Assembly: GCA_964351595.1 (NCBI GenBank)
Contig: CAYGOT010000001.1
Location: 85,847-149,846 of the forward strand
Direction of reading: 5' to 3'
Origin: an uncultured Roseivirgaceae bacterium
Lineage (GTDB): Bacteria; Bacteroidota; Bacteroidia; Cytophagales; Cyclobacteriaceae
DNA length: 64,000 nt
In this document: positions 9,086 through 30,925 of the stretch, piece after piece
Numbering within the stretch: the first letter of the stretch is position 1
How the letters are laid out: every line of letters begins with the position of its first letter
Program-made: the position numbers and the translations under genes
The notes under the pieces: model-generated
The model's input: the letters and a program-made list of their open reading frames with translations, nothing else
What the model was told of the DNA's origin: nothing
The model's database searches: none

Positions 9086-9175
<90 letters not shown>

Positions 9176-9196
9176 AAACTACGCTGAAGCTTCGTT

Positions 9197-9501: not shown

Positions 9502-9550
9502 TAGATTTGACAATAGTCAATGGAATTGACGAAACTTTAGTGCAGTCAAT

Positions 9551-9624
<74 letters not shown>

Positions 9625-9634
9625 CTTGATAATC

Positions 9635-9667
9635 AAGCACTTACATTAATTTGTAAGTGCTTTTTTT
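9635..9667 (+). terminator. Rho-independent terminator after the tRNA cluster
   Basis: aagcacttaca-ttaattt-tgtaagtgctt followed by a T-run (9661-9667). Confidence 0.7.
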
Positions 9668-10287
9668 ATATATATAAAGATTTCTTTAAAGATTTTTTAA
9701 AGGTTTACTGCGGTTACTTTTCTTATATAAGGTTTATAACCGTAATCTCATTGATAATTTCCCGGCGTATTGTGCTATGATTGGTTCAACCTCTACGGAT
9801 GCGAGCCACAGCAGTACGAATGGAGTGGGCGGAATGAGTACGCGAGCGGAGATTTGCGTGTGAACGGAGAGCACGACGATAGGAGTGTGGGAGTGAACTA
9901 TTTACGAAGGGTTGGCGTGTATTTTTGATGTCAGTGGGTTTTGTCGTTATTAATTATGAAGTTATCCTGTGGGAAACCTTTTTTCAACTCTAGATCTGGA
10001 CACACTTCTTGGGACGGTATGTCTTTTATTACTCAAGCCGGTTGCTTTAAGCTCGTTCGGTTTAGTTGTTTGGACAAGATGGGAAAGTCTAAGTCAGCCC
10101 AACGTTACTAAATTTTACGAGCTCTTAGTCACGCTATTGAAGAGTATTACTAGCAAAACTGATTGATTAAAGAGCTTTAAAAATGAATTAACTCCTAAAT
10201 TAAATTTGCGTTGTAGATCACTAGATTTACGAACGGACCTATATTAAGTTCTATTTGGTATAATCCCGTATATGAAGCTTACAGATT

Positions 10288-11970
10288 GTGATGGATAAGG
10301 ACCAATTCGATGAAAAAGGGTTTATTCAACCCATACGTGTACTAGACTTAGCTCAAGTCGAAACACTTTATGAAAAGGTTCACAAACTTAACCCTCCGAA
10401 AAGTTGGAATAAGGGCTTAGCAATCACCAACAGAGCGATCTATAATTTGGCGTGTCATCCGTTGATCTTGGAAAGGTTACATCAGTTGCTCGGCAAAAAT
10501 CTGATGCTGTGGGGAAGTGAATTAGTCATTAGGAAACCAGGTATGCATCATAGATGGCATGCAGATGCAGAACATCTTGTCACAACCAAGCAAATGGTAA
10601 ATGTCTGGATTCCTCTTGAGAACTCGTCATTAAGGAGTTGTTTAAGGTTGATACCCAGAAGCCATAACTTTAAATCTGATTTGTTATCCCTGTCCAAACA
10701 GCAAAAAGTAGATCTTAAGACTGATGGAGACGTCATGTCCTTAGCCAAAAAATATGACGATTGGGCGTACATTCACAACATGGACATGTCCGTGGGCGAT
10801 GCTGTTTTTTTTAGCGGAAGGCTTTGGCATTCTTCCATTAATCATTCTAAACTGACACGTACGGCTCTTTTGCTTTCTTATGCATCTACAGAATGCCAAA
10901 TAAAGTTGTGGGAACCGAGCTCTCTAGACTCTGAGATTAAATATTACGATTTTCCGAAACCGCCATGTCTATTGATATCTGGAGATGCTGATTTGGAAAT
11001 AAACTATTTTGAAACGCCTCCCTCTTCGAATGATTTGAACAACACTGTTTCTCTTAATCAAATTTTCGTTTCCAAGACTCTCACTCCAACCCCTCTAAAC
11101 GATCAAAATTGGTATGTTCCAAATTTCTTCTTCGAGTATAGAAATTCGACATTTGACCATATTACGTGCCATGTTTCTAATCTTAGAAAAGGCAATATAC
11201 CTCACGAACCACATACTCACGTAGAAGAAGAAATTCTGATAGTACTTAAAGGTGAGGCTTCAATTCTATCCCCAGAATCGCGTATGGTCGTCTCTTTGAA
11301 ACAGAATGAAATGGTCTATTACCCATCCAATTTCAGCCATACAATCAAAGCGACTAGCGAACAAGATTTATTTTATTTGATGTTCAAATGGAGAAGATCA
11401 AAATTCAACAGTACTGAAGTAAAACCATTTTCAAAGCATGAATTGAATTTTGATTTGATAAATAGTAAGGAAGGTAAGTACAAGTCTCATTTGGTTTTCA
11501 ACCAGGAGACGAACGACTTATATAACCTCCATTGTCATCTTTCCGCTGTAGAACCGGGGGGCGGTTATCTTCAGCACATAGATAGTTATGATGTGGTTAT
11601 TCTTTTATTGGAAGGTAGCATTACAGTGATGAACAAAGAAGTGTCTGCCCTTCGAATGCTATATATCCCTTCTGGACTTCCTCATGACTTGCACAACAGT
11701 GGAGACAGGTTGGCGAAGTACATTGTTTTTGAATTTCACGGTAACCCAGATCAAAGGTATTTCCAGCAAAAAGGTAAAAGAAGTTTAAACGCTCCGATCA
11801 GATTATCCCCGTATAATGATGAACAGTATATCACATTACAAAAAAAATACACTGACCTTATAAATTCTGATTCATTGCGGATTGGTAGGTCAATAACCGC
11901 TGGACTAAAACGATATTTTTTCTGGTTGCCATCTGTAGCAAAAAAGGTCAAAACGAAAACTTCATATTAA
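10288..11970 (+). CDS. Fusion protein with an N-terminal PhyH-type Fe(II)/2-oxoglutarate dioxygenase domain and two cupin domains
   Basis: 560 aa with a GTG start. The PhyH-like triad context is HHRWHADAEH ... GRLWHSSINHS ... RTALLLSY. Cupin 1 is IPHEPHTHVEEEILIVLKGEA...YYPSNFSHTI. Cupin 2 is GGGYLQHIDSYDVVILLLEGSITV...YIPSGLPHDLHN. Confidence 0.6.
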   Translation: MMDKDQFDEKGFIQPIRVLDLAQVETLYEKVHKLNPPKSWNKGLAITNRAIYNLACHPLILERLHQLLGKNLMLWGSELVIRKPGMHHRWHADAEHLVTTKQMVNVWIPLENSSLRSCLRLIPRSHNFKSDLLSLSKQQKVDLKTDGDVMSLAKKYDDWAYIHNMDMSVGDAVFFSGRLWHSSINHSKLTRTALLLSYASTECQIKLWEPSSLDSEIKYYDFPKPPCLLISGDADLEINYFETPPSSNDLNNTVSLNQIFVSKTLTPTPLNDQNWYVPNFFFEYRNSTFDHITCHVSNLRKGNIPHEPHTHVEEEILIVLKGEASILSPESRMVVSLKQNEMVYYPSNFSHTIKATSEQDLFYLMFKWRRSKFNSTEVKPFSKHELNFDLINSKEGKYKSHLVFNQETNDLYNLHCHLSAVEPGGGYLQHIDSYDVVILLLEGSITVMNKEVSALRMLYIPSGLPHDLHNSGDRLAKYIVFEFHGNPDQRYFQQKGKRSLNAPIRLSPYNDEQYITLQKKYTDLINSDSLRIGRSITAGLKRYFFWLPSVAKKVKTKTSY

Positions 11971-11998
11971 CTAATTATATATTCTGTTAAGAAGGAAA

Positions 11999-13873
11999 AT
12001 GACCTTAGTAATTAATTTTATTTATCAACGAGGTATATCCAAGGAAAGTAAGTTTGCTAATCAGCTGATAGCTAAAGGTCTGGCGAAGATCAGTTTCATT
12101 GATCTAAACCATCAACCTTGGCCTCACAATGGGATTAATATTTATCTTATCAACCCTATTCTTCCCAGGTGGCTTTTGGAGGAAGAATGTATCAAAGCGA
12201 ATAGAACACATTTTTCAAGAGAGGTCTCGGTCGAGACGCTAAAAAGAATCCGAGCAAAAGAGGCATTATTAGCTATTGACAACTCCGGAGAGGGGCCGGC
12301 CAATTATGCTTATCTTAAATCACTAGAGAGCTATGGTCGCCAGCATGATCTTCCACCAAGTTCTATTCTTTGGATCCACCAAAATATTGCCGTCAGTGAA
12401 GGGGAAAAATACGGCTGGGATAAATCCTATTACGTCAAGAACTTATACCATCATTCGTTCTTAGAAGAGTTGCTTGTATCTGCAACCAAAAAGGTCAAGC
12501 CCACTACGAACCTACGTGACTCCAAAAGGAGCCATTATTACCTTTTCCTAAACAATATCCCCAGGCCGGAACGACTATACGTACTTCTACGACTTTATAA
12601 TTCTGGATTAATTAATAAGGGCTTGGTTTCGTTTCAAATTGCAGATGACAGCAATGTAATCAACCTGAATTACTCAATAAATTACCTCAAAAAAAGACAT
12701 CAAGGTGAAGCGCATCTTTTTCAGGGATACGGCAGACTTGTAAAAGAACTACCACTAACAATCAACGAGCCTGACATTCTTAAAAGTGAGAAAACACAAA
12801 GTCTTTCGCTAGATGCATATAGCAAGTGCTATTTCAGCATAGTTTCAGAATCTGAAATGTCTTCAGGACATGTGATACGTTATACAGAAAAACTCTTCAA
12901 GCCAATTTACAACAAACATCCGTTTGTCGTTTTTGGTAACCCATACTCTCTTAGCAATCTTAGGAAACTAGGGTTTCAGACTTTTGATGGCTTAATTGAC
13001 GAATCGTATGACCTGATCATGGATAGCAAACAACGCAGGGCAGCTGCGTACGAGCAAGTTGAAAAACTATTGAAGCTGTCAATAGAAGAATTAGGGTCAT
13101 GGTATGAGAGCCTCAGACCTACAATAGATTACAACTATAATCACTTGATCAAAAGCTTACCCAACAAAATAAGAATTCAGCAGAACACAAAGTTGTTGAT
13201 TGAAGTGATGTGCCTAGCGTCACCGTTTGAAAATTGTTCACAGAACGCCTCCATTATTGCTGATCTGTCCATTAAGTATCGAGTTGATAAGTTTTTTGAC
13301 CAAAAAAATCTCGGACATGCACTTGACCTATTGATAAGTGAAATAAGTGATCACGGTGATTTGTCAATTTTGCTCGAGATAGTTGTTCAAGATTGGCCCG
13401 AAAATTACATGTATCTTCATCGATATAGTTCGGTACTTCTTAAAATGGGATTAAAGGATAAAGCGGAAACAATGGCGCGAATTGCCCTAATCCATAACCC
13501 AAAAGCCTATTGGACTTATCATCTTCTAGGAGACATTCAATTGTCCCTTCAAAACCCTTTAGAAGCAATGTGGAATTTCTTTAATGCCTATCATCATTCA
13601 AAAGAACTAAAATATCTTCTGTTACTTCGCGAAACGATGTTGAAATCTCAAGAAACAAAAAAAAGGATCATCGCAAGTCTCTCAGCAATTATTCAAACTT
13701 TGAAAAACCGCGATGAAGGGGGAGAAATATTGTTAAATGCAATTTACCATGAATTCAAGAGCAATAAGAAGGTAGCATCCGCAGAATATTATCAATTAAG
13801 CCTCTCCACAAAGGATGACAACACGAAGAATGCACTTTTAAACCTATCAAAAAGGTGTCTTGAAAATATATGA
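11999..13873 (+). CDS. GT10-like (alpha-1,3/4-fucosyltransferase-like) glycosyltransferase with a C-terminal TPR-like helical domain
   Basis: 624 aa. CYFSIVSESEMSSGHVIRYTEKLFKPIYNKHPFVVFGNP resembles the GT10 motif F.L.FEN....YVTEK......IPVY.G. The C-terminal ~200 aa are helical and TPR-like (ALIHNPKAYWTYHLLGDIQLSLQNPLEAMWNFFNAY). Confidence 0.45.
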   Translation: MTLVINFIYQRGISKESKFANQLIAKGLAKISFIDLNHQPWPHNGINIYLINPILPRWLLEEECIKANRTHFSREVSVETLKRIRAKEALLAIDNSGEGPANYAYLKSLESYGRQHDLPPSSILWIHQNIAVSEGEKYGWDKSYYVKNLYHHSFLEELLVSATKKVKPTTNLRDSKRSHYYLFLNNIPRPERLYVLLRLYNSGLINKGLVSFQIADDSNVINLNYSINYLKKRHQGEAHLFQGYGRLVKELPLTINEPDILKSEKTQSLSLDAYSKCYFSIVSESEMSSGHVIRYTEKLFKPIYNKHPFVVFGNPYSLSNLRKLGFQTFDGLIDESYDLIMDSKQRRAAAYEQVEKLLKLSIEELGSWYESLRPTIDYNYNHLIKSLPNKIRIQQNTKLLIEVMCLASPFENCSQNASIIADLSIKYRVDKFFDQKNLGHALDLLISEISDHGDLSILLEIVVQDWPENYMYLHRYSSVLLKMGLKDKAETMARIALIHNPKAYWTYHLLGDIQLSLQNPLEAMWNFFNAYHHSKELKYLLLLRETMLKSQETKKRIIASLSAIIQTLKNRDEGGEILLNAIYHEFKSNKKVASAEYYQLSLSTKDDNTKNALLNLSKRCLENI

Positions 13874-13907
13874 ATAGCCTGCATGGAAAGAGTCAAACTT
13901 TAACGCA

Positions 13908-14711
13908 GTGAAGACGGTAAGAACATTCGTTTCCAAGACAAAAGACAGGTATAGTATCGAATTTCCTGCTCCGGGAGCTATTAATAGCTTTTTCGTTTTT
14001 TCAATGGTCAAATCAGGCTCAACTCTTCAAAATTCTGTTGTGTCTGATCTGTGTACAATTAACAATGTCCCTACAGTGTCAATTCATGATCAAGCCTTTC
14101 TCCAAGGAGTTGCTACAAAGGACATACAAAGTGATATTGAGGATATCATTTTTCAAAAGGGCTATGGTTACCTGGGATTTCGTCACTATTTGAATCCTAA
14201 GATCAATGTTAATATCAACCGTCTAGCGAAAATATTGCTTGTGAGGAAGCCGTTAGACATCCTAACATCGCTGTATTTTTCTGTGAAGTACAGTCATTTT
14301 ATACCTGCTAATGGCAGATCCAGGTCTATGATGCTTCAGAGACAAAAAGCAGCAAATTCCTCAGACATAAATCATTTTGCACTTAATAATGCTGAGAGTA
14401 TTCGATTGGGCTACATGTCGTATTTAAAGGTCCTAGACAACCCTAACTGGCATGTATTTAAGTATGAGGAAATAATAAGTAAAAAAAGAAGTTGGATAAA
14501 GGAGCTATCAACAATTCTTTCACTTCCTATTTCCGAAGGGGATCTTGATTTGATCACTAACACACATGATATATTTCCACGAGAGGAAAGGACAAGCGAG
14601 CATATTCGACAGGTTTGGCCTGACAATCATAAGAAACACTTAGATAATAAAACGATAGCTCTGCTCAATAAAAAATTTGCTGAAGTGAACGAATACTTTG
14701 GATACTACTGA
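13908..14711 (+). CDS. Sulfotransferase-like protein (tentative)
   Basis: 267 aa with a GTG start. FVFSMVKSGSTLQ resembles the 5'-PSB loop (P-K-S-G-T-T). ILLVRKPLDILTSLYFS resembles the 3'-PB block (RDP.D..VS). Confidence 0.4.
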   Translation: MKTVRTFVSKTKDRYSIEFPAPGAINSFFVFSMVKSGSTLQNSVVSDLCTINNVPTVSIHDQAFLQGVATKDIQSDIEDIIFQKGYGYLGFRHYLNPKINVNINRLAKILLVRKPLDILTSLYFSVKYSHFIPANGRSRSMMLQRQKAANSSDINHFALNNAESIRLGYMSYLKVLDNPNWHVFKYEEIISKKRSWIKELSTILSLPISEGDLDLITNTHDIFPREERTSEHIRQVWPDNHKKHLDNKTIALLNKKFAEVNEYFGYY

Positions 14712-14785
14712 CCACAATCTCAAAAACCACAGTGAAACGTATACTAAACGACAAGGGAGAGTGGATGATTACTGCAACTTTGCGA

Positions 14786-15520
14786 TTATATCCAAAATCT
14801 TTCAAAAAGATTGGGGTATCTCAATATCTCCCTAGATGATACCGAGGGAAAATCTCTATGTAAACTGCCCAGCCAGTCCTCTTTTTTGTCCAGGGACATA
14901 TAATTCCTAACTATATCAAAATAATTTTCTGATAAACCTTTTGATAATGGGTCAAGATTAGTGAGAGCTAATAAGCCTGTAGGTGGACAATCCAATATGG
15001 TCATGCTGATATCAGGTCGAAGCTCCTTTAGTACATAGCATATTTTCCAAACATCGCCCGTCCACCAGCTTTTATATGGATCATTTTCGGATAGTTCATT
15101 TCCGCAACCTGATCTTCCAGCCATGTTCTCGTTTAATGGCAAACAATCATGCATGAATATGATTGAGTTCTTCTTGGTATAAGGCTCCAAATGAATGAAA
15201 TCTCTTAAAAGAAATTCAAATAAGTGCAGACCGTCAAGGAATGCTATATCGACATGTGGGAAGAACTCGAATACATTTTCATTTTGAAAAAATGAGTCAC
15301 TGGTTTGCTGAAAAAGCAGGGTTCTTCTCCTGCCAGCGCAGGGGTTGCTTGAAAAACTAAAATTGGGATCAATGGCAATACTATCGCAGCTAGAAGTTGC
15401 AAGTGAATGACCGACTGAAGTCCCTACTTCCAGATAGTACATAGGGTTGAACGAACTATGGACTTGCTTCAGAAATTGAAGATAATGCACCCCCTGGTGC
15501 TCATTAATATCATTCTCCAT
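14786..15520 (-). CDS. Class I SAM-dependent methyltransferase (Methyltransf_24/CmcI-like, probable sugar O-methyltransferase)
   Basis: 244 aa. YYLEVGTSVGHSL is motif I. DIAFLDGLHLFEFLLRDF...IIFMHDC is the typical post-II/III arrangement of this family. Confidence 0.55.
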   Translation of the reverse strand: MENDINEHQGVHYLQFLKQVHSSFNPMYYLEVGTSVGHSLATSSCDSIAIDPNFSFSSNPCAGRRRTLLFQQTSDSFFQNENVFEFFPHVDIAFLDGLHLFEFLLRDFIHLEPYTKKNSIIFMHDCLPLNENMAGRSGCGNELSENDPYKSWWTGDVWKICYVLKELRPDISMTILDCPPTGLLALTNLDPLSKGLSENYFDIVRNYMSLDKKEDWLGSLHRDFPSVSSREILRYPNLFERFWI

Positions 15521-15523
15521 TTG

Positions 15524-17419
15524 CTAATATTTGAACTTGGTACGATTGATTTTTAATTGAGCATTTTCATGTAGCGGCACATCAATAGCATCAAATAGCT
15601 CATAAGTGCCTGCATCCAGAACTAGTAGGTTGAGGCCTGACGCGTTGGCTCCTAATTGCTTATTGTTAAACTTCACAGTAGCATTGCTACCACTATGAAG
15701 CTCCATCTTAGAGACTCGCGGCAAGCTCTTGTTTCCTTTTAGAACGACATGGTGTTCATTGCTATCTGAGCTTTCGTGCCATATAGCGCCGTTAGTTTCG
15801 ACAATGGCAATATAACCCCTCGTATTCATTGGCAAAGACTTACTTAGCAATCCTAGCTCATTCATTGACCCGAGAATCTCATTAAGTCTATGTACAGGCC
15901 CACCTCTAGTGGTTATCACGACTATTTTATCATTGATACCTTTTAATGCCTTAAAATATTCACCCAACTCAAGTGTGCGCTTTTTTAAAAACTGTTCCTG
16001 ATTTGACTGCTGGTATTGATATTCGTCAACATTGAAAAAAGGAATGTCTCCAGGGTCAATAAACAATCCCTGATCGAGAATCTCAATTATATGCCCTTTC
16101 ATAGTATCTTCATTAGCTATCGTAATACCGGCAATTGTCATATTATCCCTGGTTGAGCCCGGAGGTAATTTAGACATGAAAAAATACGTGCTATCATCGA
16201 TTTGATCTTTTAAGTCAAATGCCTGTCGTACGAACGTCCTCAACGCGATATTCTCCGCGACTGCACTATCTGTTTTTATTAACAAATAATAGTACAATCC
16301 TTCATAGTCCTTATTAGAATAGACATATCGGAGGTAATTTCCATGTCTGGGTGCTGGTGGACTAATACTAAACCGTTTCTCATCATGTCTTTCAAGTCCA
16401 TAAAAGTCCAGCCTGTCACTACTCTGTATCATGTTAATTACTTGAGGATACTGACTAATCTGATCCGCCTTGAGCGTATCTTTATAAGCTGATCTGAGGT
16501 CTCCAATTAGCGTTTTGGTACGCCAGTATCTGCCAATATGATTAGGATGCCAGCGAGCTCCACTAGCATGCTCTTGATTAAAAAAATAGGATTTTGAGTC
16601 ATTCAGTAAATCAATACCTGTAGAGGTGCTCAGACTACTCATGTACTCCTCGACATTGTCACTTTTGTAGATACCTGCTTGGGCACCTGGAGGAACCAAA
16701 AAAAAATATCCTCCTCTCGAGGAAACGAAATTTTTGAATCCTCTCAGTTCATTGGCCAGTGTCCATGTCGAATCTGGAAGAAGCAATTTTGATTGTCCTA
16801 CCTTCAGGGTATCGACATTTGACATGAAACTAGTTCTTATATTATCCTCAACCCATATGTCATTATAGTAAAATGAATTGTCCTGTTTGGGATAATCCGA
16901 CCATGCGTTTCGTACGGCCCGAATAAACCCTGCGAGTGACGCTTTTAAAAACTTGTAACTGCTAAAGATGATGGGCAGTCTGGCAGGGGTATGTAACAAT
17001 ACTGTGCTTGCATAATCATTTCTTATCTCGAAGTTAGCAGCGTCGGTATCAACACTGAATTCTCGTGAGAATAGCACTATATCTCCTTCATCAATATAGG
17101 GTTTACAGTACTCGAGCATGAAGACCAAACTAAACCCAGCAAAAGTACCCATGTTTATCATTGGTATCCCCAGTTCTCTTTCCACTTGAAGGCTGTTGAC
17201 ACCATAGGCTCCACTGCTACCGCTAATCAAAATGGCCTTTGGTGAAGGTGTGTTTTGAAGCTTACAAAGTTTATTTCTTAAACCATTGGCAATGTAATCA
17301 TGACCATAGAATGGATTCAAGTCCAATATCAGAACGATTGTTGCCAGCATTAATATCAACATGCACACAACTTTGAAAAAGAACTTGAACCTTGGCGCCA
17401 TATGAATCTTTGGTCTCAC
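15524..17419 (-). CDS. Membrane-anchored DltD/AlgX-AlgJ-like (SGNH-like) protein with an unknown C-terminal domain; paralog 2
   Basis: 631 aa from the GTG start. An ATG at 17401 would give 625 aa. It has an N-terminal TM anchor, the block AILISGSSGAYGVNSLQVERELGIPMINMG, and a His block ARWHPNHIGRYWR. It is a paralog of the upstream gene and lies in the MBOAT operon. Confidence 0.45.
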   Translation of the reverse strand: MRPKIHMAPRFKFFFKVVCMLILMLATIVLILDLNPFYGHDYIANGLRNKLCKLQNTPSPKAILISGSSGAYGVNSLQVERELGIPMINMGTFAGFSLVFMLEYCKPYIDEGDIVLFSREFSVDTDAANFEIRNDYASTVLLHTPARLPIIFSSYKFLKASLAGFIRAVRNAWSDYPKQDNSFYYNDIWVEDNIRTSFMSNVDTLKVGQSKLLLPDSTWTLANELRGFKNFVSSRGGYFFLVPPGAQAGIYKSDNVEEYMSSLSTSTGIDLLNDSKSYFFNQEHASGARWHPNHIGRYWRTKTLIGDLRSAYKDTLKADQISQYPQVINMIQSSDRLDFYGLERHDEKRFSISPPAPRHGNYLRYVYSNKDYEGLYYYLLIKTDSAVAENIALRTFVRQAFDLKDQIDDSTYFFMSKLPPGSTRDNMTIAGITIANEDTMKGHIIEILDQGLFIDPGDIPFFNVDEYQYQQSNQEQFLKKRTLELGEYFKALKGINDKIVVITTRGGPVHRLNEILGSMNELGLLSKSLPMNTRGYIAIVETNGAIWHESSDSNEHHVVLKGNKSLPRVSKMELHSGSNATVKFNNKQLGANASGLNLLVLDAGTYELFDAIDVPLHENAQLKINRTKFKY

Positions 17420-19311: not shown

Positions 19312-20168
19312 GAAGGCATTAATTCCCCATATTCGTCAAACTGAAATACACCTTCCAGACTACCACGATAGAGGTTTTGAAAAAGCGCAACATTGCCCGT
19401 ATGATTAACTACATACTTACAAGAGGATACTATTCTTAATGCCGCATCAAACCATTGTGCCCATTCAAGTATGTTTCCCTTGTCATATTTGGACATGAGA
19501 CTCCAAACAACTCTGTTCTCATGGGTCGTAGGTGTTTCATCAAAATGGAAAGCCTTTTCTCCAAGCTCAGTCATACAATAGTCCAATACAGGACCATCAT
19601 CAGTCTGTAGCAAGACACGACAATCAGGGTGCTCTTCAAGCAGCGTTCGTACAACTCCCAAGTACTTTTCGCGACTAGCCAATTTCACTTCAGTATGCTT
19701 ATCAGTTCCTCTATAAAGTACGGCAATGGTTTGAGCAGGCTCAATAGTATACTTCTCTGTTAAAATTTGAATCTTATTGGCAACTGAAATTGATGGAGTA
19801 AAAAACTTTTTCAGCACCAAGCTGTACGATTCAAAATCGTAGTTCACCCTTTGTTGCTTGACAACATTTGCACTGGGAACATGTATTCTTTTGTTTAGAG
19901 GCACTTGTACGTTGGGTTGAATGGGTAAATGAAAAGAAGGAAATATATCCTCTCTTGGGTTTGTCTTGAAATGTTCAAATCCATGTTCGTACGATATTCG
20001 TTCAGGCTCTATTCCATAATGCAATAGGATAAGTAAAGACGAAAAAGTCTGCGTCATATTCGAATAGAATCCCTGGTTCCATAAGCATTCCAAAGTTGAA
20101 CCCTCGGGGAATAAGTCAGTATCCCGCCCTCCGGTACTGCATATATATCTACAGTTTCTTAATCTCAT
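19308..20168 (-). CDS. Hypothetical protein, possibly of the fucosyltransferase-like (GT23/GT11-type) superfamily
   Basis: 286 aa. AVLYRGTDKHTEV resembles the H(V/I)RR(G/T)DK donor-binding motif. LLQTDDGP follows it. Confidence 0.3.
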   Translation of the reverse strand: MRLRNCRYICSTGGRDTDLFPEGSTLECLWNQGFYSNMTQTFSSLLILLHYGIEPERISYEHGFEHFKTNPREDIFPSFHLPIQPNVQVPLNKRIHVPSANVVKQQRVNYDFESYSLVLKKFFTPSISVANKIQILTEKYTIEPAQTIAVLYRGTDKHTEVKLASREKYLGVVRTLLEEHPDCRVLLQTDDGPVLDYCMTELGEKAFHFDETPTTHENRVVWSLMSKYDKGNILEWAQWFDAALRIVSSCKYVVNHTGNVALFQNLYRGSLEGVFQFDEYGELMPS

Positions 20169-20177
20169 GGCATTCTG

Positions 20178-21650: not shown

Positions 21651-21694
21651 AATCTAAGAATTAATGACAAAATTGATTTATATCGATTCTATTT

Positions 21695-22822
21695 TTATTC
21701 ATCAACTCGAATTAGACTCCTTCCCAACTTGATCATTTTATTCCCTAAAGATTTAAATACTCGATCAGAATTACGATAACCTAACCTTTTGGTAACTTTA
21801 ATATAGGCCTTAATCAATTTCTTATGTAGTTTAATTAGTGGAGTTCCTAAGCCTCTTTCCGCATATAATTCTGTTTGGGAAATATGTGAGACAGAAGCAT
21901 ACACATTCCTCTGCTGTCTCAATCGTTGAATCAGCACATTTGCTACTTCAATATCAGTCATATAAACGCAACCTGCCTGATCATATGGTTTTGAGAATTC
22001 ACCAAAATCAAAACCAGAATAGTAAATTTTCTTTTTTCCAATCCTTGAAGACATTTCACTGAAGGAACTAAAGTAACTCCCTAGTACATACTGGCATTTG
22101 CTCAAAAGAAGAAGGTCCGCCAGAGCATATTGGATATCTTTTTTTGATCTGCCAAAATGATCTCTGACAAGAACCATACAATTATCGGGAAATTTATTCC
22201 TGATCAGATTCAAAGCACCTGAATCATCTGTAGCAAGAAAGAACCTGGTTTCAGGGTTTTGATTCAAGATATTTTCCATTTCAGAAACAAAAAATGCCGG
22301 ATTGGCCAGCTGTCTGGCAAAATCCAACTCCATCTGGCCATCTTCAGTCCAATTGCCTTCGACTTGCTCCCACGAATGCCCCTGTTGTTTATTTTGTCTT
22401 CTAATATGCACCCCGATACAGTCCTTAGTATCAATGTTTCTAATCAGCTGCGCTACCTCAACTGATGGATTCAATCTATTAAGGAAGTCTAACTCTACTT
22501 GCTCACAATCAAGGAGTGTATTAAGAGGGTTGTACGTCTTAATATACATGTGCATATTCGGCACATCATGTATCAAAGGCAGTGCTTGATATCCTTCTAC
22601 TTCCATGCAATTAATAATATGATGGACAGAAACATCCGGACAATCCGCACTGACATGAAATCCTTCAACATCAAAAATGTCTTCAAATAAGCAGTCGCAA
22701 TGGTGATCGGGGTGCCACACAATCTTTAATGTCCTATCAGTGCGCTTCGCAAAGCAATATGCACTGGAAAGAGCTCTTAAGCGATTGGTGAGACCAAATT
22801 GGCAGTCAATAACTAAATCCAT
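21695..22822 (-). CDS. Fucosyltransferase-like GT-B glycosyltransferase (GT11/GT23-type motifs); tandem paralog A
   Basis: 375 aa. It has FGLTNRLRAL near the N-terminus, then GVHIRRQNK, FFLATDD and DLLLLSKCQYVLGSYFSSFSEMS. Confidence 0.45.
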   Translation of the reverse strand: MDLVIDCQFGLTNRLRALSSAYCFAKRTDRTLKIVWHPDHHCDCLFEDIFDVEGFHVSADCPDVSVHHIINCMEVEGYQALPLIHDVPNMHMYIKTYNPLNTLLDCEQVELDFLNRLNPSVEVAQLIRNIDTKDCIGVHIRRQNKQQGHSWEQVEGNWTEDGQMELDFARQLANPAFFVSEMENILNQNPETRFFLATDDSGALNLIRNKFPDNCMVLVRDHFGRSKKDIQYALADLLLLSKCQYVLGSYFSSFSEMSSRIGKKKIYYSGFDFGEFSKPYDQAGCVYMTDIEVANVLIQRLRQQRNVYASVSHISQTELYAERGLGTPLIKLHKKLIKAYIKVTKRLGYRNSDRVFKSLGNKMIKLGRSLIRVDE

Positions 22823-22844
22823 ATTAAGTCAATTCCTAAAGACA

Positions 22845-23783
22845 TTAAGACTTGGGATTGTTCAGTATTTTATCAAACCTCATTAACTCAATTTTTAATT
22901 GAGAAAGTTGTTGCTTGTGATAGTCACGCGGAATGAGTTCGGAATCAACTTGTCTGAAATCCCGTCCGGCATATTGGATTTCAAGGTTTCCTAAATTTTT
23001 GGCTACTTCGGTGAAAGAACTGCCGTAACTTCCTAACATACCTTTGGTTTGCGAAAGTAGAATGATTTCTGCAAGTGCATCCTGAACAGAACCTACACTT
23101 CGATCTCGCTTTTGAAGATCAAACGAAGCTATGCTGAACGCAAAAAGCTCCTTTAAGTATTCGATAGCCTGATTACTATCTGCACAGACAAAGAATTTTT
23201 GATTGGGGTCCTCATTCAACATGTTACGAATTTGATGCGCAAAAAAAATGGGGTCACTGACGGATCGAAAGGTCACCAATTTTGATTGGTCGTTGGATGT
23301 CCAATTTTCAGAAGCTTTTTCATAATTGGCATTTGAATTTTTGGCGTGTAAGTTTCTTATGTGCACACCACACATGTCAAACACATCCCAGGAATGTATT
23401 TTCTCCAGAATGGGCCTTAACGGAACTACTTTTTTTAAAGAAATGAACTCCAGGTTCGTATTACTTGATCTTGTATTGAGCTCGCAATAGGTCTTAATAT
23501 ATATATCACTAGGACAATCTATATCTATAAATGGCCTACTTGGGTTACCGTCTATAGACATAGCATTATAGTAAACACAGCTATCCAAGTCAGTTTCTTC
23601 TTGGTTGGGCAATACCTCGAAATCGGATTTGTCGAAAAGATCATAATAGGAAGCCTCACAGTGATTGTCTTTTTCCCATATCACCTGTAAATCTCGCCCT
23701 GAAATTCTGGCATTATGGATTGCACTACCTAATACTCTTAACCTATTGGCTAGGCCAAATTGTGGGTGACAAATAAGTTTCAT
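22845..23783 (-). CDS. Fucosyltransferase-like GT-B glycosyltransferase; tandem paralog B
   Basis: 312 aa. It has FGLANRLRVL, GVHIRNLHAK, FFVCADS and EIILLSQTKGMLGSYGSSFTEVA, collinear with the upstream paralog. Confidence 0.45.
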   Translation of the reverse strand: MKLICHPQFGLANRLRVLGSAIHNARISGRDLQVIWEKDNHCEASYYDLFDKSDFEVLPNQEETDLDSCVYYNAMSIDGNPSRPFIDIDCPSDIYIKTYCELNTRSSNTNLEFISLKKVVPLRPILEKIHSWDVFDMCGVHIRNLHAKNSNANYEKASENWTSNDQSKLVTFRSVSDPIFFAHQIRNMLNEDPNQKFFVCADSNQAIEYLKELFAFSIASFDLQKRDRSVGSVQDALAEIILLSQTKGMLGSYGSSFTEVAKNLGNLEIQYAGRDFRQVDSELIPRDYHKQQLSQLKIELMRFDKILNNPKS

Positions 23784-23799
23784 GTCAGTACTAGTTGAA

Positions 23800-26700
23800 T
23801 TAGCGACGCAATATATTTATTGGTTTTAGAAGAAATTGAACGGCCTTCCATACTTTAGACTTCTCAACTGTATCTTTGAATTGCTTGTATTCCTCAAGCT
23901 GCAGATTCATAGAGAGATTAGTTTGCCTAAGAGCTTCAATTTCAGCTAAGGACTTATGCTGAATCTGATTACATAGCTCTATTTTGTGTTCTGCACTGGT
24001 TAGCCTTTTCTGAAGAGTTTCAATTTTCTTCTTTGATGTTTGCTCTTCACCACCTACCCAGCTTTTATATTCATTACCAGAGAATTTCTGTTTAACGTGC
24101 TCTAGCTGTAGTATTTTATTTTTTACACCTACCGTCCAGTTAGCATGGTGCATCAATATTCCTTCAGGGATATCTAATTCTACAAGCGGGTCCCAGACCC
24201 ATTGGGTACCTAACTTTGCGTTACCTAGTCCAGGACTATAAAATCGATCACTTAAGTAAGCCCATTTAAGATAGTGGGACATCCCCAGCACCTTGTTAAA
24301 TACTACCTGATCTCCTTTTATTGACAAATCTGATTCAATGATATTTCTGACATCCAGAAAGAATTTTCTTACACGCTCATTAGCGCGGCAAAAAAAGAAG
24401 CCACTGCAGGCTACTCCCTTGAAATCTGCACCAAATTCATCATTGGCGTCCCGCTGAAAAACCATGTCCAGATTACCTAGTTCTTTTACAATTTGTGATC
24501 TAATACGGCCAAAAAATTGAATGTCCACATCAGCAAAAACAAAATAACCTCCAAAATTATCCTCTACAGCTTGAAGAAGCAGATCATTTTTATCTCGCAT
24601 GGTATTCATCCACCCCTTTTCCTCAAACACCCCACTTGAAGCTTTCTGTTGATACTGGTTCACGATTAAGTTGAAGTCATCTTTGAGCGAGGGCTTGAAC
24701 CATCTGGTAAATAATGATTGATGTGAAGGTGTGAAGTAGGTATAAAGTGGTATCCTGGTTGGATGATGTTCTTTTTGCACCCAGTATGGTGTTACATTTC
24801 GTAGATGATCGGTATTCGGCACTTTTTTCAACCTGTCGAATTGCGGGATTCTTTCAAATGGTCCTGACTTTAAAATTATGTCACATTCCAAAGAGGCATT
24901 ATAAACTTTGTATCCTGCGCCATCCATAGACTGCATAATATCCTGACCGTTGCTAAGGCCGCTTAGCAATTTCGGGGATATTGGCGTCCTCGTAACCAAC
25001 GCATCAATCTTGGATAAGTCCAGAAAACCACCGGAACCATTAAATTCATATTCGGAAAATTGATATTGCGAATTCAACTGACCTGACAGCTCATCGTAAG
25101 ATTGTTTGCCTTGAATTACAACCGCTATATGGTCATCTAAGTAGTCATGTGCTTTATAAATGTTCTCAGCAACATTGACACCCAATGTAACAATAACTAT
25201 GTTCTGGTTTATTGCAGAAGTACTTGCATAGGTTAGGGCTTCTAATAGCAGATTATCAGAATTTGTGGTGATAACCTTTATATCGTTTTCGTATTGAGTT
25301 GCTGAGTGATTAGTGAATAGAACACACTCCTTAATGTACGTATTCGATAGGTTTTCTTTGAGTAATTGAGAACCCGGTGGATGGTCATTGGAAATGACAA
25401 GTAGTGTGAAAAACCTTTGTTTGTTCAAATGGTACTTGAGGTCGACTTTATTCCGTTCTGAGAATTTTCGACCAAAAAAATAGGCCATCAGCCTTTCCTG
25501 AATCTGGCCAATCCCCCTTCTTAACTTAAGGTCATACGAAATATCTTCTTTTGCCCAATACTTCCCATTATTCTCTTCTTTAAAAGACACCCCAGTCTGA
25601 AACCCATAATTCTTCAAGATATACTGGGTACATTTTTCCAGCCATATTTGATATTCTTCAAAAAGATTCTTTCGTACAATCACCGTGCCCTTGAATGGTC
25701 CAGTAATCGGATTGTCAATCGGTGGGATATGCAACTCGACATCTTCGTCAATTTCACTGATTATGGTGTTGCCAATATCGTCCCCAAAATAAGGAGAATA
25801 CTCAACCCCGTATAGCATATCTTGATCAAATGTGGCATTCTCTAAAAGTCCAAAATCTAAGTAGGGCTTGAAAAGGTGACCATTAGTTTTTAGTTGGCTT
25901 ACATATTGTTCATTGAACTTGAGCGGTATGGAATAGGTGAACAGTCCAACCATACCTGAATGAGGTCTGATAGCCAAATGGCCCAGATATTCCGAATAGA
26001 TAGCCCGATTATCAAACTCATCAAGAGAATCTAGGCTCAAGTTTTCTGGAATTGCGAGATCGTTCAGGTCAACATAACTAATGTTTTCTGGTGAATGTAC
26101 AACGGGTTTACTTAAGTTGAGTAGTTTGTCATCATGATAGAAAATATAATGTGTTGGTAACACTGTTTGGGCAATTTCTTTGCTGGACTTGCTTGATGAC
26201 CCTAGATCTAAGGGATTTAGCCCCACAGAGGCAATTTCCGCTACAATAGAGTCTTGGAGTTCGGTTAAGTAATTGATATCAAATGAATTCCAATTCGTAT
26301 CTACAACCTTCCTATTCTTCTTAAATTCTATGCTAAGAAGATTTTCATCAACTGAATGCTCTGGGGCGATATGGTTGATTACCCAAATAATGTGTTCAGT
26401 AGATGCCAAAAGCTCGGGATATGGCAACAATCGGACATTCGGCAAAATTACTGCACCGACAACCCACTTCTCTTTGAATCTGATCCAATCATCGATTTTG
26501 GATTGCATAAATCTCTTCCATTCAGAGTGAGGATACTTCTGAGCACAGAATAGTTCGAGGATCGATTCGAAAGGATGGCGGTAATGAACTATGTATTGAT
26601 ATTCATTCTCAACCTCAATATTAGAGCTGAAATCATGATTCTTCTGAACGTTGGTTTCAACACTAGAGCAACCATGGGTGTTGCAATGACTATAGTATTC

Positions 26701-26862
26701 ACAATAATTCAAAGGTCCAACTGAAAGGAATCCCTTTTCCTTCCATATAGAATTTGTGCTCTTCAATTGAAAGTACCTGCGGAAATAGCCGGACAATGTA
26801 TTTATTAAAAATACATGACCACTATATGGAAACTCGATGCAGATTATTGGTTTATTTCTCAA
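23800..26862 (-). CDS. Large multidomain glycan-biosynthesis protein with a DUF4422-like central region, a C-terminal DxD nucleotide-diphospho-sugar transferase-like domain and a coiled-coil tail
   Basis: 1020 aa. NRAIYSEYLGHL resembles the DUF4422 motif. YFVFADVDIQFFG (DxD), MVFQRD and ACSGFFFCRANERVRKFF resemble the PF03407-type transferase. The last ~90 aa are heptad-like (LQKRLTSAEHKIELCNQIQHKSLAEIEALRQTNLSMNLQLEEYKQF). Confidence 0.45.
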   Translation of the reverse strand: MRNKPIICIEFPYSGHVFLINTLSGYFRRYFQLKSTNSIWKEKGFLSVGPLNYCEYYSHCNTHGCSSVETNVQKNHDFSSNIEVENEYQYIVHYRHPFESILELFCAQKYPHSEWKRFMQSKIDDWIRFKEKWVVGAVILPNVRLLPYPELLASTEHIIWVINHIAPEHSVDENLLSIEFKKNRKVVDTNWNSFDINYLTELQDSIVAEIASVGLNPLDLGSSSKSSKEIAQTVLPTHYIFYHDDKLLNLSKPVVHSPENISYVDLNDLAIPENLSLDSLDEFDNRAIYSEYLGHLAIRPHSGMVGLFTYSIPLKFNEQYVSQLKTNGHLFKPYLDFGLLENATFDQDMLYGVEYSPYFGDDIGNTIISEIDEDVELHIPPIDNPITGPFKGTVIVRKNLFEEYQIWLEKCTQYILKNYGFQTGVSFKEENNGKYWAKEDISYDLKLRRGIGQIQERLMAYFFGRKFSERNKVDLKYHLNKQRFFTLLVISNDHPPGSQLLKENLSNTYIKECVLFTNHSATQYENDIKVITTNSDNLLLEALTYASTSAINQNIVIVTLGVNVAENIYKAHDYLDDHIAVVIQGKQSYDELSGQLNSQYQFSEYEFNGSGGFLDLSKIDALVTRTPISPKLLSGLSNGQDIMQSMDGAGYKVYNASLECDIILKSGPFERIPQFDRLKKVPNTDHLRNVTPYWVQKEHHPTRIPLYTYFTPSHQSLFTRWFKPSLKDDFNLIVNQYQQKASSGVFEEKGWMNTMRDKNDLLLQAVEDNFGGYFVFADVDIQFFGRIRSQIVKELGNLDMVFQRDANDEFGADFKGVACSGFFFCRANERVRKFFLDVRNIIESDLSIKGDQVVFNKVLGMSHYLKWAYLSDRFYSPGLGNAKLGTQWVWDPLVELDIPEGILMHHANWTVGVKNKILQLEHVKQKFSGNEYKSWVGGEEQTSKKKIETLQKRLTSAEHKIELCNQIQHKSLAEIEALRQTNLSMNLQLEEYKQFKDTVEKSKVWKAVQFLLKPINILRR

Positions 26863-26930
26863 GGCGCAAAATATGTACGTTGACCGCTTCAGATTGACAA
26901 AGGCATAGAAGTATCTAGAAAGACCCTAAC

Positions 26931-28649
26931 CTAATTATTTGAGACCAAATCCTTACTAATATTACTTGGTATGTCGCAGAAGTCAGAATTCACTCGTTGA
27001 TAAACTCTTACTTCTCTCTCCTTGAATACCAATTCAAAGTCTTCACTCTCGAAGACTTCATTTAAAAACAAATCATACTGAACATCAGAATCCCAAAGGG
27101 AGCCTTTTTGCAACTCACCATGTTCGTCGTACCATATATGCCTTCCTGGAACGCTGCTATTTAGGACGAGCACGTCACTGCTATTAATTTGACTTTTCTC
27201 GAAGAAGTGATGCCTGAATACTTTACGAAATCTATCATGTCTTGGCACGTAGGAGTAATAAGGAACAAGAATCACTGCATCATCATTGCAATGCCGCTCA
27301 ACCAAATTACCTGCAAGTTCCTTGGGACTGTTTTTACCACTAACTGTGATCCATTGAAGTGCTCGCCAGTTGTCACCCCAAAAGTGGTTATATGCTGAGA
27401 GTGCAGAAATCAAAGTGATAACCAGTATCATCGACAACCTGTATTTTTTGAAGAAATCAATCTTTAACGCGATATAATAGGTGTAGAAAATAACTGCAAA
27501 GAACAGCGGAAGTAAAGTAAGCATATGACGCGGATGTCTCTCATTGATGAAAAAAAGGAGAAAACAGGCATTAATACCCATTGTTATAAAAAATGAGAAC
27601 ATGATCAACAAATTATAGCGCGTCTTGATCATTTCATGGACTCTTGATAAGAGAGTATGTCGATTCTGCCATAGATACCAAACCAATATGAGCAATGAAA
27701 ATGGTAATATCCATAAATACCCATTTGTTTCTTTCTCAAACACGGGTAGCCAAAGAAAAGGGTCGGAAGGCGGGACATATCCGTATCCATCAGATGCACC
27801 TATAAACATATTCATCAACTGCCTTAAAGATTCACTTGGTTCTACAACAAATCTCCAAGTGGGGATTATTATAAATAATAACCAAATCAAAAGTAGAGCA
27901 ATGCTATTGCGAAGATATGTCCCTACGGTCTTCTTAAAACTTTGTTCTCTATCGTAATGCAACAGAAAATAACTAGTATATGAAAGTGGTATGAGAATAG
28001 TATAAAACCCACCTATATATTTAGTGCTAGTTGCTAGCCCGATGATCGCAGCGGCAATAAAAATATTTTTCAAGGATCCGGTAATAATCAAATATGCGCT
28101 AATCGTCAATAACGCCAGCTGTACAATATCAGGATGGATGTGATAACCCCAAGTAAATACGCCATGCGTTGAAACGAAAACAACCGCAATTGAAAACGAT
28201 AAAATGATGTTTTTGGTGATTATTATACCCATTCGATATGTAAAATAAAGGACACTTGTCCATGAGATCATTTGCACTATGAAAAGGCTAAGAGCAGCAG
28301 TTGAGAAATTTAGGGGAGCACCTACTTCCATCAATATTTTAGCCATATAAAAGGAAATGAAGTGAAAGAAATTACCGTAGTAGAAGAGGTTTGAGACAGT
28401 CGTGCTATTCTGTTCGAGCATGGTAAGCAACGATTTGGTAATCAGTGGCCCGTCACTCACGAACATTGATGCGAATTCAAATGATTGATATCTATGGGCG
28501 ATCATTTGGACTGTCATCAAACAGTAAATCAGGCCAATTAGGATTGTCAATAGACTGATAAGACTGTTAAGATTCTCAAACTCTATTCCAACAATTTTCT
28601 TTCTCCAAAAATCAATTTCTGCCTTGAACTCCTTGCTAAATATCTCCAT
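26931..28649 (-). CDS. Polytopic membrane protein, GT-C-like (ArnT/PMT-like glycosyltransferase or polymerase)
   Basis: 572 aa. About 12 predicted TM helices are followed by a ~130-aa soluble C-terminal domain. No diagnostic motif could be read by eye. Confidence 0.35.
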   Translation of the reverse strand: MEIFSKEFKAEIDFWRKKIVGIEFENLNSLISLLTILIGLIYCLMTVQMIAHRYQSFEFASMFVSDGPLITKSLLTMLEQNSTTVSNLFYYGNFFHFISFYMAKILMEVGAPLNFSTAALSLFIVQMISWTSVLYFTYRMGIIITKNIILSFSIAVVFVSTHGVFTWGYHIHPDIVQLALLTISAYLIITGSLKNIFIAAAIIGLATSTKYIGGFYTILIPLSYTSYFLLHYDREQSFKKTVGTYLRNSIALLLIWLLFIIIPTWRFVVEPSESLRQLMNMFIGASDGYGYVPPSDPFLWLPVFEKETNGYLWILPFSLLILVWYLWQNRHTLLSRVHEMIKTRYNLLIMFSFFITMGINACFLLFFINERHPRHMLTLLPLFFAVIFYTYYIALKIDFFKKYRLSMILVITLISALSAYNHFWGDNWRALQWITVSGKNSPKELAGNLVERHCNDDAVILVPYYSYVPRHDRFRKVFRHHFFEKSQINSSDVLVLNSSVPGRHIWYDEHGELQKGSLWDSDVQYDLFLNEVFESEDFELVFKEREVRVYQRVNSDFCDIPSNISKDLVSNN

Positions 28650-29260
28650 GCTCTTCTTTTAGTTCTGACTAATATACACACCTGATTACTCTCTCATTCG
28701 CAATAATTAATGGTTTTACACATTAATGCTAATCCGTTGATGTAAAGAGTTCGGGCTCATGGATGAAGTGTCTGTATATAATGGTACAATCCTGCTTCCA
28801 AATTAGTCCTTATCTGAATTAGTGATGGGATTTCATTGACTACTTTGGCTATGATATTGGCACATGCCTAGAGAATGGGTATCCCAGCTGGGTAGCAGGA
28901 TTACATCATCTAATCTGATTAATAGAAGCATAGCTTACTCAACAAAACCTCAAATATCATCATTGATTAATGAATGACGATGGAAATCACCATCACGATG
29001 AGCAATGATCCATTGCAGGTCAAACATTTGAGTAAATCTTTGTCGGCCCGACTAATTAAAATTACGGCAGCCATTTTATATGGGAGTCCCCAAAAATGAG
29101 ACATGAATATTGACAACATAGTCCCTTATCATCATATGAAAGTGCTCAGTCTGCATGATTCAATATTCGATCGAGAATCAATTTAATCTAAAGAAGTGGA
29201 ACAAAAATGTATGCTAGAGTCCTATGAAGTGATACTTTTAAAGTAATAAGTTAGCAGAAC

Positions 29261-30910: not shown

Positions 30911-30925
30911 TTTCATAACCAAAAC

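Follow-up and report, generated by a model that had tools for sequence, protein, structure and literature searches.

The 64-kb stretch of DNA analysed here (hereafter the window, to which all coordinates without another label refer) contains a strain-variable genomic island at 9668-29047, on the 3' side of the tRNA-Arg(TCT) gene of an uncultured Cyclobacteriaceae species. This AT-richer block next to the tRNA gene measures 19.4 kb and carries candidate genes for glycan assembly and modification. The tRNA-Arg gene that anchors the variable site lies at 9551-9625 on the forward (+) strand (ARAGORN; Rfam tRNA, 66.7 bits); tRNA-Ser(GCT) is found just upstream, at 9086-9175 (ARAGORN, Rfam), and a hairpin terminator of the tRNA, consisting of an 11-bp stem and then a T run, follows at 9635-9662 (+). 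This terminator is the last DNA common to the window and the related species L008 and L009. Homology to these species extends to 9667 and 9666, respectively, and then gives way to divergence; the left edge of the island was therefore placed at 9668. Within the island, 12 open reading frames (ORFs) fill 10288-28649, three on the + strand (10288-14711) and nine on the reverse (-) strand (14786-28649), the latter tightly packed and in part overlapping. The island is therefore described as two convergent operons, each preceded by one of the two longest spacers.

These two spacers, at 9626-10287 (662 bp) and 28650-29260 (611 bp), exceed every other intergenic gap of the window in length, in agreement with an earlier note on this DNA, which had the island start directly after tRNA-Arg and lie between two unusually long gaps. 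The left spacer is island-specific from 9668 to 10287 (GC 0.372) and is presumed to be the promoter or regulatory region of the + operon. The island part of the right spacer is 28650-29047, and core homology to an island-free strain restarts at 29048 (blastn against OZ245881.1). Neither long spacer contains a credible ORF, and an Rfam scan of 8700-30000 returned the two tRNAs and one sub-threshold overlap of a tRNA only, with nothing in either spacer. The Bacteroidota promoter pattern TTTG..TAnnTTTG had 0 matches in either spacer and was not enriched across the window, and a sigma-70 promoter scan gave fewer sites than were obtained in shuffles. The otherwise AT-rich left spacer also holds a G+C-rich patch (9790-9920) with loose repeats of GAGTG/GGAGTG-like words, for which Rfam gave no match.

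Base composition sets the island apart from its surroundings. The GC content is 0.384 in 9630-29047, versus 0.452 in 1-9629, 0.420 in 29048-47000 and 0.470 in 47001-64000. At third codon positions (GC3), all 12 island genes fall between 0.35 and 0.41, and 31 of the 32 other genes of the window between 0.41 and 0.60 (Mann-Whitney p = 1e-6); as a whole, the island has a GC3 of 0.381 versus 0.48-0.49 for the flanks. In codon usage, too, the island stands furthest from the left and right flanks. The AT-richness reported previously for 20200-20300 relative to 6000-6100 (GC 0.30 versus 0.50) thus has its counterpart in GC, GC3 and codon usage, none of which is uniform across the window.

The presence of the block was then compared among relatives. 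A scan that used the adjacent VWA protein as query and covered a single genome of each species placed the organism as an uncultured Cyclobacteriaceae bacterium; look-ups of two flank proteins by exact sequence had no match. The conspecific chromosome OZ245881.1 (locus L007), with flanks 93-97% identical to the window at the nucleotide level, lacks the island. Homology to this chromosome stops at window position 9629 and restarts at 29048; about 400 bp take the place of the island, and the AraC-type/hydrolase gene (window 29261) comes directly after the two tRNAs. The sequence after the tRNA differs in every related species examined. L008, L009 and L010 carry unrelated genes there (enolase-superfamily protein, LacI, sigma factor, histidine kinase, beta-lactamase and others), and the island was found at this tRNA in none of L008-L010, L014 and L018. 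It is present at the same tRNA in a 155.8-kb ENA/NCBI contig of the assembly ERZ25074583. Moreover, a Logan contig from ERR3534974 matches 12845-32888 of the window with 100% identity; its first base lies within the gene for a 624-amino-acid (aa) protein, and the contig covers the right junction, not the tRNA end. Conservation of the block in all relatives, which the earlier note had named as evidence against its proposal, was thus not observed, and the block is strain-specific.

Between the window and the ERZ25074583 strain, identity is 98.7-99.5% for the island genes, 94-96% for the flanking core DNA and 90-91% for the two spacers (90% for the left one). Because the island genes are about 99% identical and the core only 94-96%, a recent exchange of the gene block appears to fit better than vertical descent. 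The route of acquisition is where the evidence weighs against this account: the island contains no integrase, transposase or mobility gene, no integrase domain was found in any ORF examined, no flanking direct or inverted repeats were found, and the 3' end of the tRNA, searched with up to 3 mismatches, is single-copy in the window and yields no attachment (att) repeat. The same lack of an integrase and a flanking repeat in the window speaks for a block that is ancestral at the site and was deleted in the OZ245881.1 lineage rather than acquired horizontally. In addition, deletions occur nearby, the ERZ25074583 strain having lost 29197-33342, and the island-free site of OZ245881.1 is itself rearranged. 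In this empty site (reverse strand of L007, 9355-9710), a second copy of the tRNA-Arg 3' half, together with about 45 bp that include a different terminator, is found about 230 bp downstream. This duplication is an att-like scar and indicates that integrative elements have used the site.

An ancestral block with a deletion in one strain is nevertheless disfavoured by composition, by the identity contrast and by absence in related species, and we consider it very unlikely. The GC3 of all 12 island genes lies 0.10 below that of core genes; the strains that share the island at 99-99.5% identity differ more in their core (94-96% identical); L008-L010, L014 and L018 are without the island at this tRNA; and in another lineage, described below, the cassette is at its compositional home, with a GC content of 41.7% that equals that of its flanks. 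With tRNA-linked integrative islands, the block has several features in common: it abuts the 3' end of a tRNA gene, its composition is deviant, its presence varies among close relatives, and an att-like duplication exists at the empty site of OZ245881.1. It differs from them in that no integrase or mobility gene was found in the island and no direct repeats duplicating the tRNA 3' end were found in the window.

Three of the nine - strand genes encode proteins with the fold of the fucosyltransferases NodZ, FUT8 and POFUT, an assignment that rests on sequence profiles for two of them and on a structural model for the third. The first two are NodZ-like (GT23-type) glycosyltransferases (GTs) of 375 aa (21695-22822, -) and 312 aa (22845-23783, -), which are paralogs (34% identity, E = 5e-51). 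Fifty-six relatives of this pair were found in the database, often with NodZ, O-FucT or FUT8 Pfam domains (PF05830, PF10250 or PF19745). When the family profile A2, built from 39 members including both island proteins, was compared with the PDB, it matched NodZ at 4e-20 over nearly the full length (profile 25-270 versus chain 13-293), followed by FUT8 (2e-9), POFUT2 (9e-8), POFUT1 (1e-6) and plant FUT1. The A2 consensus shows IGVHIRRxD and SSFS, that is, the GxHxRR and S-x-F-S motifs of NodZ/FUT8. A single sequence scored 27.2 bits against Pfam NodZ, just under the cut-off of 28.3, and single-sequence PDB searches of the 312- and 375-aa proteins gave nothing significant. By their profile, both proteins are assigned to the GT23-like fucosyltransferase superfamily.

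The third protein, of 286 aa (19308-20168, -), belongs to a family without a Pfam model; 147 homologs of about 50% identity were collected, and a Pfam domain was found in none. Its AlphaFold2 model (predicted local distance difference test score, pLDDT, 91) gave FUT8 as the best Foldseek match (E = 3e-7, TM-score 0.58), then NodZ (TM-score 0.56), POFUT2, AtFUT1 and POFUT1. All 33 matches at E <= 0.001 were FUT8, NodZ, POFUT2 or AtFUT1, with POFUT1 just above the cut-off. Identity to the solved enzymes is only 9-16%; the profile of the family (A1) had no match in the PDB, and no sequence-level match was found for the protein itself. The family shares the invariant motif YRGTDKxTE (R153, D156, K157, T159 and E160). 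In FUT8, the donor-site residues are R365/D368/K369, and E373 is marked as a conserved catalytic residue (PMC11468063). The motif of the 286-aa family corresponds to R365/D368/K369 of FUT8. His363 of FUT8 is Leu in the family. The final E of the motif we take, from our own alignment, to be the equivalent of E373. Fold and donor-site Arg/Asp/Lys together place the 286-aa protein in the GT23-like superfamily as well. A relationship between the 286- and 312-aa proteins by sequence was considered and rejected, BLASTP finding nothing; their likeness is at the level of the fold only. As predicted in the earlier note from HxRRxDK/GT11-GT23-like motifs in three proteins, the island is thus enriched in enzymes that are fucosyltransferase-like in fold.

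Relative to the GT23/GT65/GT68/GT37 superfamily (NodZ, FUT8, POFUT1/2 and AtFUT1), the resemblance lies in the NodZ profile match, in the match of the 286-aa model and in the retained R-x-x-D-K and T-E residues. The island proteins differ from it in falling below or outside Pfam thresholds, in the 9-16% identity of the 286-aa protein, in Leu for His363 and in N or H for Asp368. The last substitution, seen in the 375- and 312-aa proteins as it is in NodZ, counts against reading the donor from the fold. The NodZ/FUT8 fold family also contains non-fucose transferases, and plant relatives transfer rhamnose. Fucose in particular is further opposed by the lack of gmd/fcl (GDP-fucose) genes near the cassette, either in the window or in the contig L093 of the other lineage. 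In contigs of cyanobacterial look, where the 286-aa family is widespread, its gene follows that of a GDP-mannose 4,6-dehydratase and precedes that of a TylF-type methyltransferase. Because of the fold family and this one indirect linkage to GDP-mannose dehydratase, the donor of the three enzymes would most plausibly be a GDP-6-deoxyhexose such as GDP-fucose. The conserved glycan cluster around these relatives (L087-L092) also includes Methyltransf_21, a split transketolase, an RmlD-like reductase, a cytidylyltransferase, PfkB and GT25, and adjoins an SLH/OprB porin.

Three large proteins were also compared with glycosyltransferase families. The 1020-aa multidomain protein (23800-26862, -) matches Pfam Nucleotid_trans at 2e-12; its GT77-like GT-A domain (residues 738-919) contains a DVD motif and is followed by a C-terminal coiled coil. 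Of the multidomain transferase proposed previously, this domain alone is identifiable: the N-terminal ~700 residues, for all their 40% conservation with an ortholog, had no family match, and a single-sequence PDB search gave nothing significant. A sulfotransferase-like N-terminus, suspected from PxSG and RHP motifs, was discarded when hhalign against a sulfotransferase alignment returned a probability of 0.2%. Metagenomes contain many relatives of the GT77-like C-terminal domain, and the full architecture is rare. The 624-aa soluble protein (11999-13873, +) consists of a core (~1-460) and a TPR-like C-terminus, and only 8 homologs were found. Its conserved core motifs are RPxR ... E ... [FT][ST]EKxxKP ... 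DESYD. The label GT10-like, given to it in the earlier note, may serve as a lead. In an hhalign comparison of the family with Helicobacter pylori FucT (2nzw), F-S-x-V-x-E-T...F-T-E-K-x-x-K-P was placed onto FENT...VTEK with TEK in register. On the opposite side, that match is a weak one (E = 1.4e-3, probability 17%), none of the 9 family members matches Pfam Glyco_transf_10, and the A3 profile had no match in the PDB. The first gene of the - operon encodes a 572-aa polytopic membrane protein (26931-28649, -) with, by hydropathy, about nine hydrophobic segments and, at the C-terminus, about 150 aa that form a soluble domain. Searches of Pfam, NCBIfam and the PDB gave no match for this protein, and it has no similarity to the GT87 protein encoded at 33451, to which a relationship had been considered; a GT-C-like enzyme, a polymerase or a ligase are guesses at its role. 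The island therefore offers four GT-type domains with fold or family support and one tentative GT10-like protein.

Sulfation and methylation are represented by one gene each. A cytoplasmic sulfotransferase of 267 aa (13908-14711, +), of the type that uses 3'-phosphoadenosine 5'-phosphosulfate (PAPS), scored 29.4 bits against Pfam Sulfotransfer_1 (cut-off 22). In alignment A6, K35/G37/T39 of the 5'-phosphosulfate-binding motif and R113/P115/D117/S121 of the 3'-phosphate-binding motif are invariant. The domain and both motifs (K-x-G-T and R-x-P-x-D-x-x-x-S) mark the protein as a predicted PAPS-dependent sulfotransferase. The 244-aa protein encoded at 14786-15520 (-) is a class I S-adenosylmethionine (SAM)-dependent methyltransferase; its Pfam match is Methyltransf_24 (29.8 bits, cut-off 26.3) and not the CmcI family to which the earlier note had assigned it. 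The + operon begins with a 560-aa protein (10288-11970, +) in which PhyH, a 2-oxoglutarate/Fe(II) oxygenase domain (7e-16), is fused to two cupins (Cupin_2, 7e-16, two stretches), so that the PhyH-bicupin fusion deduced previously is seen in Pfam too.

The acylation module resembles a known mechanism. The MBOAT acyltransferase (490 aa; 20178-21650, -; Pfam MBOAT, 1.6e-22) has about nine transmembrane segments, contains RRWHISLS in its conserved His region and ends in FIYFQF, an instance of the FxYxxF acyl-shuttle motif; this C-terminus also matches the DltX model at 6e-4. In PatA, the tyrosine of this hexapeptide is auto-acylated and the acyl group is passed to an SGNH partner, the mechanism of PatA/PatB and DltB/X/D (PMC12148441). 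Candidate partners are encoded within 1 kb of the MBOAT gene by two tandem paralogs (31% identical), each of 631 aa and each built of an N-terminal anchor of one transmembrane segment, an SGNH-fold domain and a C-terminal beta-sandwich resembling carbohydrate-binding modules (CBMs): partner a at 15524-17419 (-) and partner b at 17416-19311 (-). Partner a keeps S69, G74, N90, D114 and H293, and S69, N90 and H293 are conserved in both paralogs. For the N-terminal domain of about 310 residues, 2393 relatives were detected; in a 40-sequence sample (alignment A4), K51, S69, D114 and H293 were invariant and N90 nearly so. The AlphaFold2 model of partner b (pLDDT 78) matched rhamnogalacturonan acetylesterase 1deo (E = 3e-5), Escherichia coli TAP 1jrl (TM-score 0.64), GDSL lipases and PatB 8tlb in Foldseek, and the C-terminal beta-sandwich of the model matched CBMs.

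An MBOAT with its His region and FxYxxF ending, next to anchored SGNH-fold proteins with catalytic Ser and His, would constitute an MBOAT-SGNH acyl shuttle, and from the model and the conserved residues partners a and b are predicted to be extracytoplasmic O-acyltransferases. The two SGNH-CBM proteins may serve two positions or two sugars. As in PatA/PatB, AlgI/AlgJ/AlgX and DltB/DltX/DltD, the terminal FxYxxF and anchored SGNH-fold partners with Ser/Asn/His are present. An SGNH domain combined with a CBM is the architecture of AlgX. Unlike in those systems, the partners here are two paralogous tandem 631-aa proteins, and a FucT-fold gene is wedged between the MBOAT gene and the partner genes, in the window and in the L093 lineage alike. 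The MBOAT with two DltD/AlgX-like partners that the earlier note described is thus recovered in its MBOAT, SGNH fold and AlgX-like architecture, and not in membership of the DltD/AlgX sequence families: none of 40 family members matched DltD, ALGX or PatB in Pfam, and the A4 profile had no match in the PDB. A further point to be set against a working module is that in the ERZ25074583 strain partner a is frameshifted into 485 + 147 aa. By family, motif and fold evidence, the sulfo-, methyl- and acyl-transfer functions originally attributed to the island are all encoded there.

Ten of the 12 island genes are also clustered in another Bacteroidota lineage (contigs L005, L006 and L093), at 33-69% amino acid identity. 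The order MBOAT - 286 - 631 - 631 - methyltransferase is kept in that lineage. Orthologs in L005/L093 are 69% identical for the MBOAT, 64% for the methyltransferase and 33-35% for the 624-aa protein; in L005, the sulfotransferase ortholog is 57% identical (45% in L003) and the 1020-aa ortholog 41% over the full length. No ortholog of the PhyH-bicupin protein or of the 572-aa protein was found in the L005/L093 cassette, and these two are lineage-specific accessory genes of the island. In L093, the cassette lies directly beside ABC2_membrane and ABC_tran genes (Wzm/Wzt type), two GT4 genes and a GT2+DUF2304 pair. In a third lineage, GT4 - sulfotransferase - NodZ-like genes of low GC are found at a contig end. 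Since a metagenome scan with the 1020-aa protein revealed no further complete copy, the cassette is considered rare.

These data bear on what the cassette does. We think it probable that the island carries a conserved cassette for a cell-surface glycan, probably with a deoxyhexose, that is built by the ABC-transporter route and is sulfated, methylated and O-acylated. Across the 64 kb of the window, no initiating transferase, Wzx/Wzy/Wzz/Wza, flippase, ABC exporter or nucleotide-sugar gene was found, so that the pathway as seen is incomplete; together with the unmatched 572-aa protein and the unmatched N-terminus of the 1020-aa protein, this weighs against the proposal. The lack of initiating transferase, Wzy/Wzz/Wza and nucleotide-sugar genes had already been recognised in the earlier note, which concluded that the island is a decoration cassette rather than a complete locus. 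On that account, the island would fucosylate, sulfate, methylate, acylate and hydroxylate a polymer whose backbone is made elsewhere, with a fucoidan-like product. Initiation, polymerisation and export genes are indeed missing from the island and the window, and three FucT-fold enzymes stand beside a sulfotransferase, a methyltransferase and an MBOAT. Moreover, the 286-aa family occurs beside GDP-mannose 4,6-dehydratase in other genomes, and GT23, GT10 and sulfotransferases make up the toolkit proposed for brown-algal fucans (PMC11468063). Four or five GT-type domains plus a 1020-aa coiled-coil protein, however, exceed what side-chain decoration usually needs, and the L093 cassette is contiguous with Wzm/Wzt and with only three other GT genes, and so probably supplies most of the chain. 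Fucose, with gmd/fcl genes not found nearby, would be a further assumption. We therefore regard a purely decorating cassette as unlikely; the term understates the content of the island and its L093 context. Because the L093 cassette is embedded with Wzm/Wzt, two GT4 genes and GT2+DUF2304, the island cassette is more likely to act in chain synthesis for a polymer of the ABC-transporter type, and the genes for initiation and export would lie elsewhere in the genome.

Some evidence also suggests an acceptor other than a polysaccharide, such as a glycolipid or lipopolysaccharide core, a Bacteroidota protein O-glycan or a small secreted metabolite. Polymerase and chain-length genes are not present, half of the island proteins lack a family assignment, and the neighbouring core cluster at 33451-46931 combines GT-C, GT2, sulfotransferase and radical-SAM genes. 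Set against this, CBM-like beta-sandwich domains are part of the SGNH partners, Wzm/Wzt genes lie next to the orthologous cassette, and MBOAT-SGNH pairs are known for envelope polymers (PMC12148441). An acceptor of this kind is, in our view, improbable, and a surface polysaccharide is retained as the proposed product.

All transferases of the island are soluble, without a signal peptide or transmembrane segment; hydrophobicity is confined to the MBOAT, the 572-aa protein and, in the 631-aa proteins, the anchors. Enzymes that use PAPS are necessarily cytoplasmic. Because the transferases are soluble and the PAPS enzyme is cytoplasmic, assembly and sulfation are placed in the cytoplasm. In the pathway that we propose, the three NodZ/FUT8-fold enzymes, the GT77-like domain and possibly the 624-aa protein would assemble the glycan on a lipid carrier in the cytoplasm, where the sulfotransferase would sulfate and the methyltransferase would methylate it. 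The glycan would then be exported via an ABC-2 transporter encoded elsewhere in the genome. Finally, the MBOAT would load an acyl group (probably acetyl, from acyl-CoA) onto the tyrosine of its own FIYFQF motif, and the acyl group would pass to the catalytic serine of one SGNH-CBM protein and on to the polymer, outside the membrane. Variable presence, composition, folds and families, motifs, topology and the conserved linkage of the cassette genes are direct observations; we infer the order of steps, as well as the donor sugar, the acceptor and the export route in this genome.

The DNA around the island has variable features of its own. A second cluster at 33451-46931 encodes a GT87 (GT-C) protein, a 408-aa protein with 12 transmembrane segments, a strong Sulfotransfer_1 match, a GT2 and a radical-SAM/SPASM protein, as well as three B12-binding radical-SAM proteins, two methyltransferases and three ORFs without a family. 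Its first part, to the radical-SAM/SPASM gene (~38.3 kb), is conserved in OZ245881.1, whose locus ends there; because it is conserved in this island-free strain, at least this first part looks like core rather than island. Since the island abuts the 33-47 kb cluster in the ERZ25074583 contig, a single locus comprising both was considered, and was rejected: a decayed AraC-type remnant reveals a secondary deletion, and the island-free strain keeps the second cluster. In the ERZ25074583 strain (L002 2902-3553), the lost segment 29197-33342 comprised the AraC-type/hydrolase, SprB-repeat, YceI and DUF5777 genes, the first of which has left a remnant of 78% identity. Between tRNA-Ser and tRNA-Arg, a small ORF of the GIY-YIG nuclease family (9206-9478, +; Pfam 5e-13) is absent from OZ245881.1, where 20 bp separate the two tRNAs; in L008 and L136, the inter-tRNA spacer is of a length similar to that in the window. 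A second strain-variable segment, 2065-4410, absent from both OZ245881.1 and the ERZ25074583 contig, holds a 267-aa ORF (GC3 0.32) and a 421-aa protein with a type IX secretion system (T9SS) sorting tail. An IS200-like Y1 transposase (51573-52034, -; Pfam Y1_Tnp, 1e-23) lies far from the island.

Among characterised systems, the ABC-transporter-dependent loci for O-antigen, capsule and Rgp/GAC-type rhamnose polysaccharide resemble the island in their soluble cytoplasmic GTs and as strain-variable, low-GC loci. The L093 cassette, beside ABC2_membrane + ABC_tran, two GT4 and GT2+DUF2304, further recalls Rgp/GAC-type loci with GacI/GacJ-like GT2+DUF2304. The difference is that exporter, initiating enzyme and sugar-nucleotide genes lie outside the island and the window here; Wzm/Wzt-type genes within the locus are seen only beside the L005/L093 cassette. 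To our knowledge, the GT set, with three FucT-fold proteins, one GT77-like protein and orphan proteins, is unlike that of any characterised O-antigen or capsule locus. With bacterial clusters for sulfated polysaccharides (synechan xss of Synechocystis; sulfated capsules of Vibrio and Cobetia), the island shares a PAPS-type sulfotransferase inside a glycan cluster. It is unlike them in GTs, in taxon (Bacteroidota here) and in export logic, and is known from its genes alone. A literature search by accession numbers gave no match.

A strain-variable surface-glycan island is a common phenomenon, and in the acylation module the MBOAT-SGNH shuttle is clearly recognisable. What is new is the particular cassette, the assignment of a fold to the 286-aa GT23-like family and to the anchored SGNH domain of about 310 aa (>2000 relatives), both of them unannotated, and the co-occurrence in Bacteroidota of a sulfotransferase with several FucT-fold enzymes, which echoes the brown-algal fucan toolkit (PMC11468063). 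In aquatic Bacteroidota, variable loci for surface glycans influence sensitivity to phages, resistance to grazing and attachment to particles, and the products of such loci are almost unknown in uncultured Cyclobacteriaceae. With three FucT-fold enzymes and a sulfotransferase, the island provides a concrete candidate locus by which bacteria would make a sulfated deoxyhexose glycan, and the strains that carry or lack it provide a natural presence/absence pair for functional tests. The boldest reading is that a Bacteroidota lineage of marine or aquatic habitats synthesises a surface polysaccharide of its own, which contains fucose and is sulfated, methylated and acetylated, through a compact, horizontally exchanged cassette in which the enzyme classes of brown-algal fucans (GT23 fold, GT10-like and sulfotransferase) are joined by the 286-aa FucT-fold family and a dual SGNH-CBM acylation module; we hold it to be a long shot. 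If the product were indeed fucoidan-like, polymers of this kind could be studied or produced by a bacterial route, and the cassette would be a genetically tractable model of their biosynthesis.

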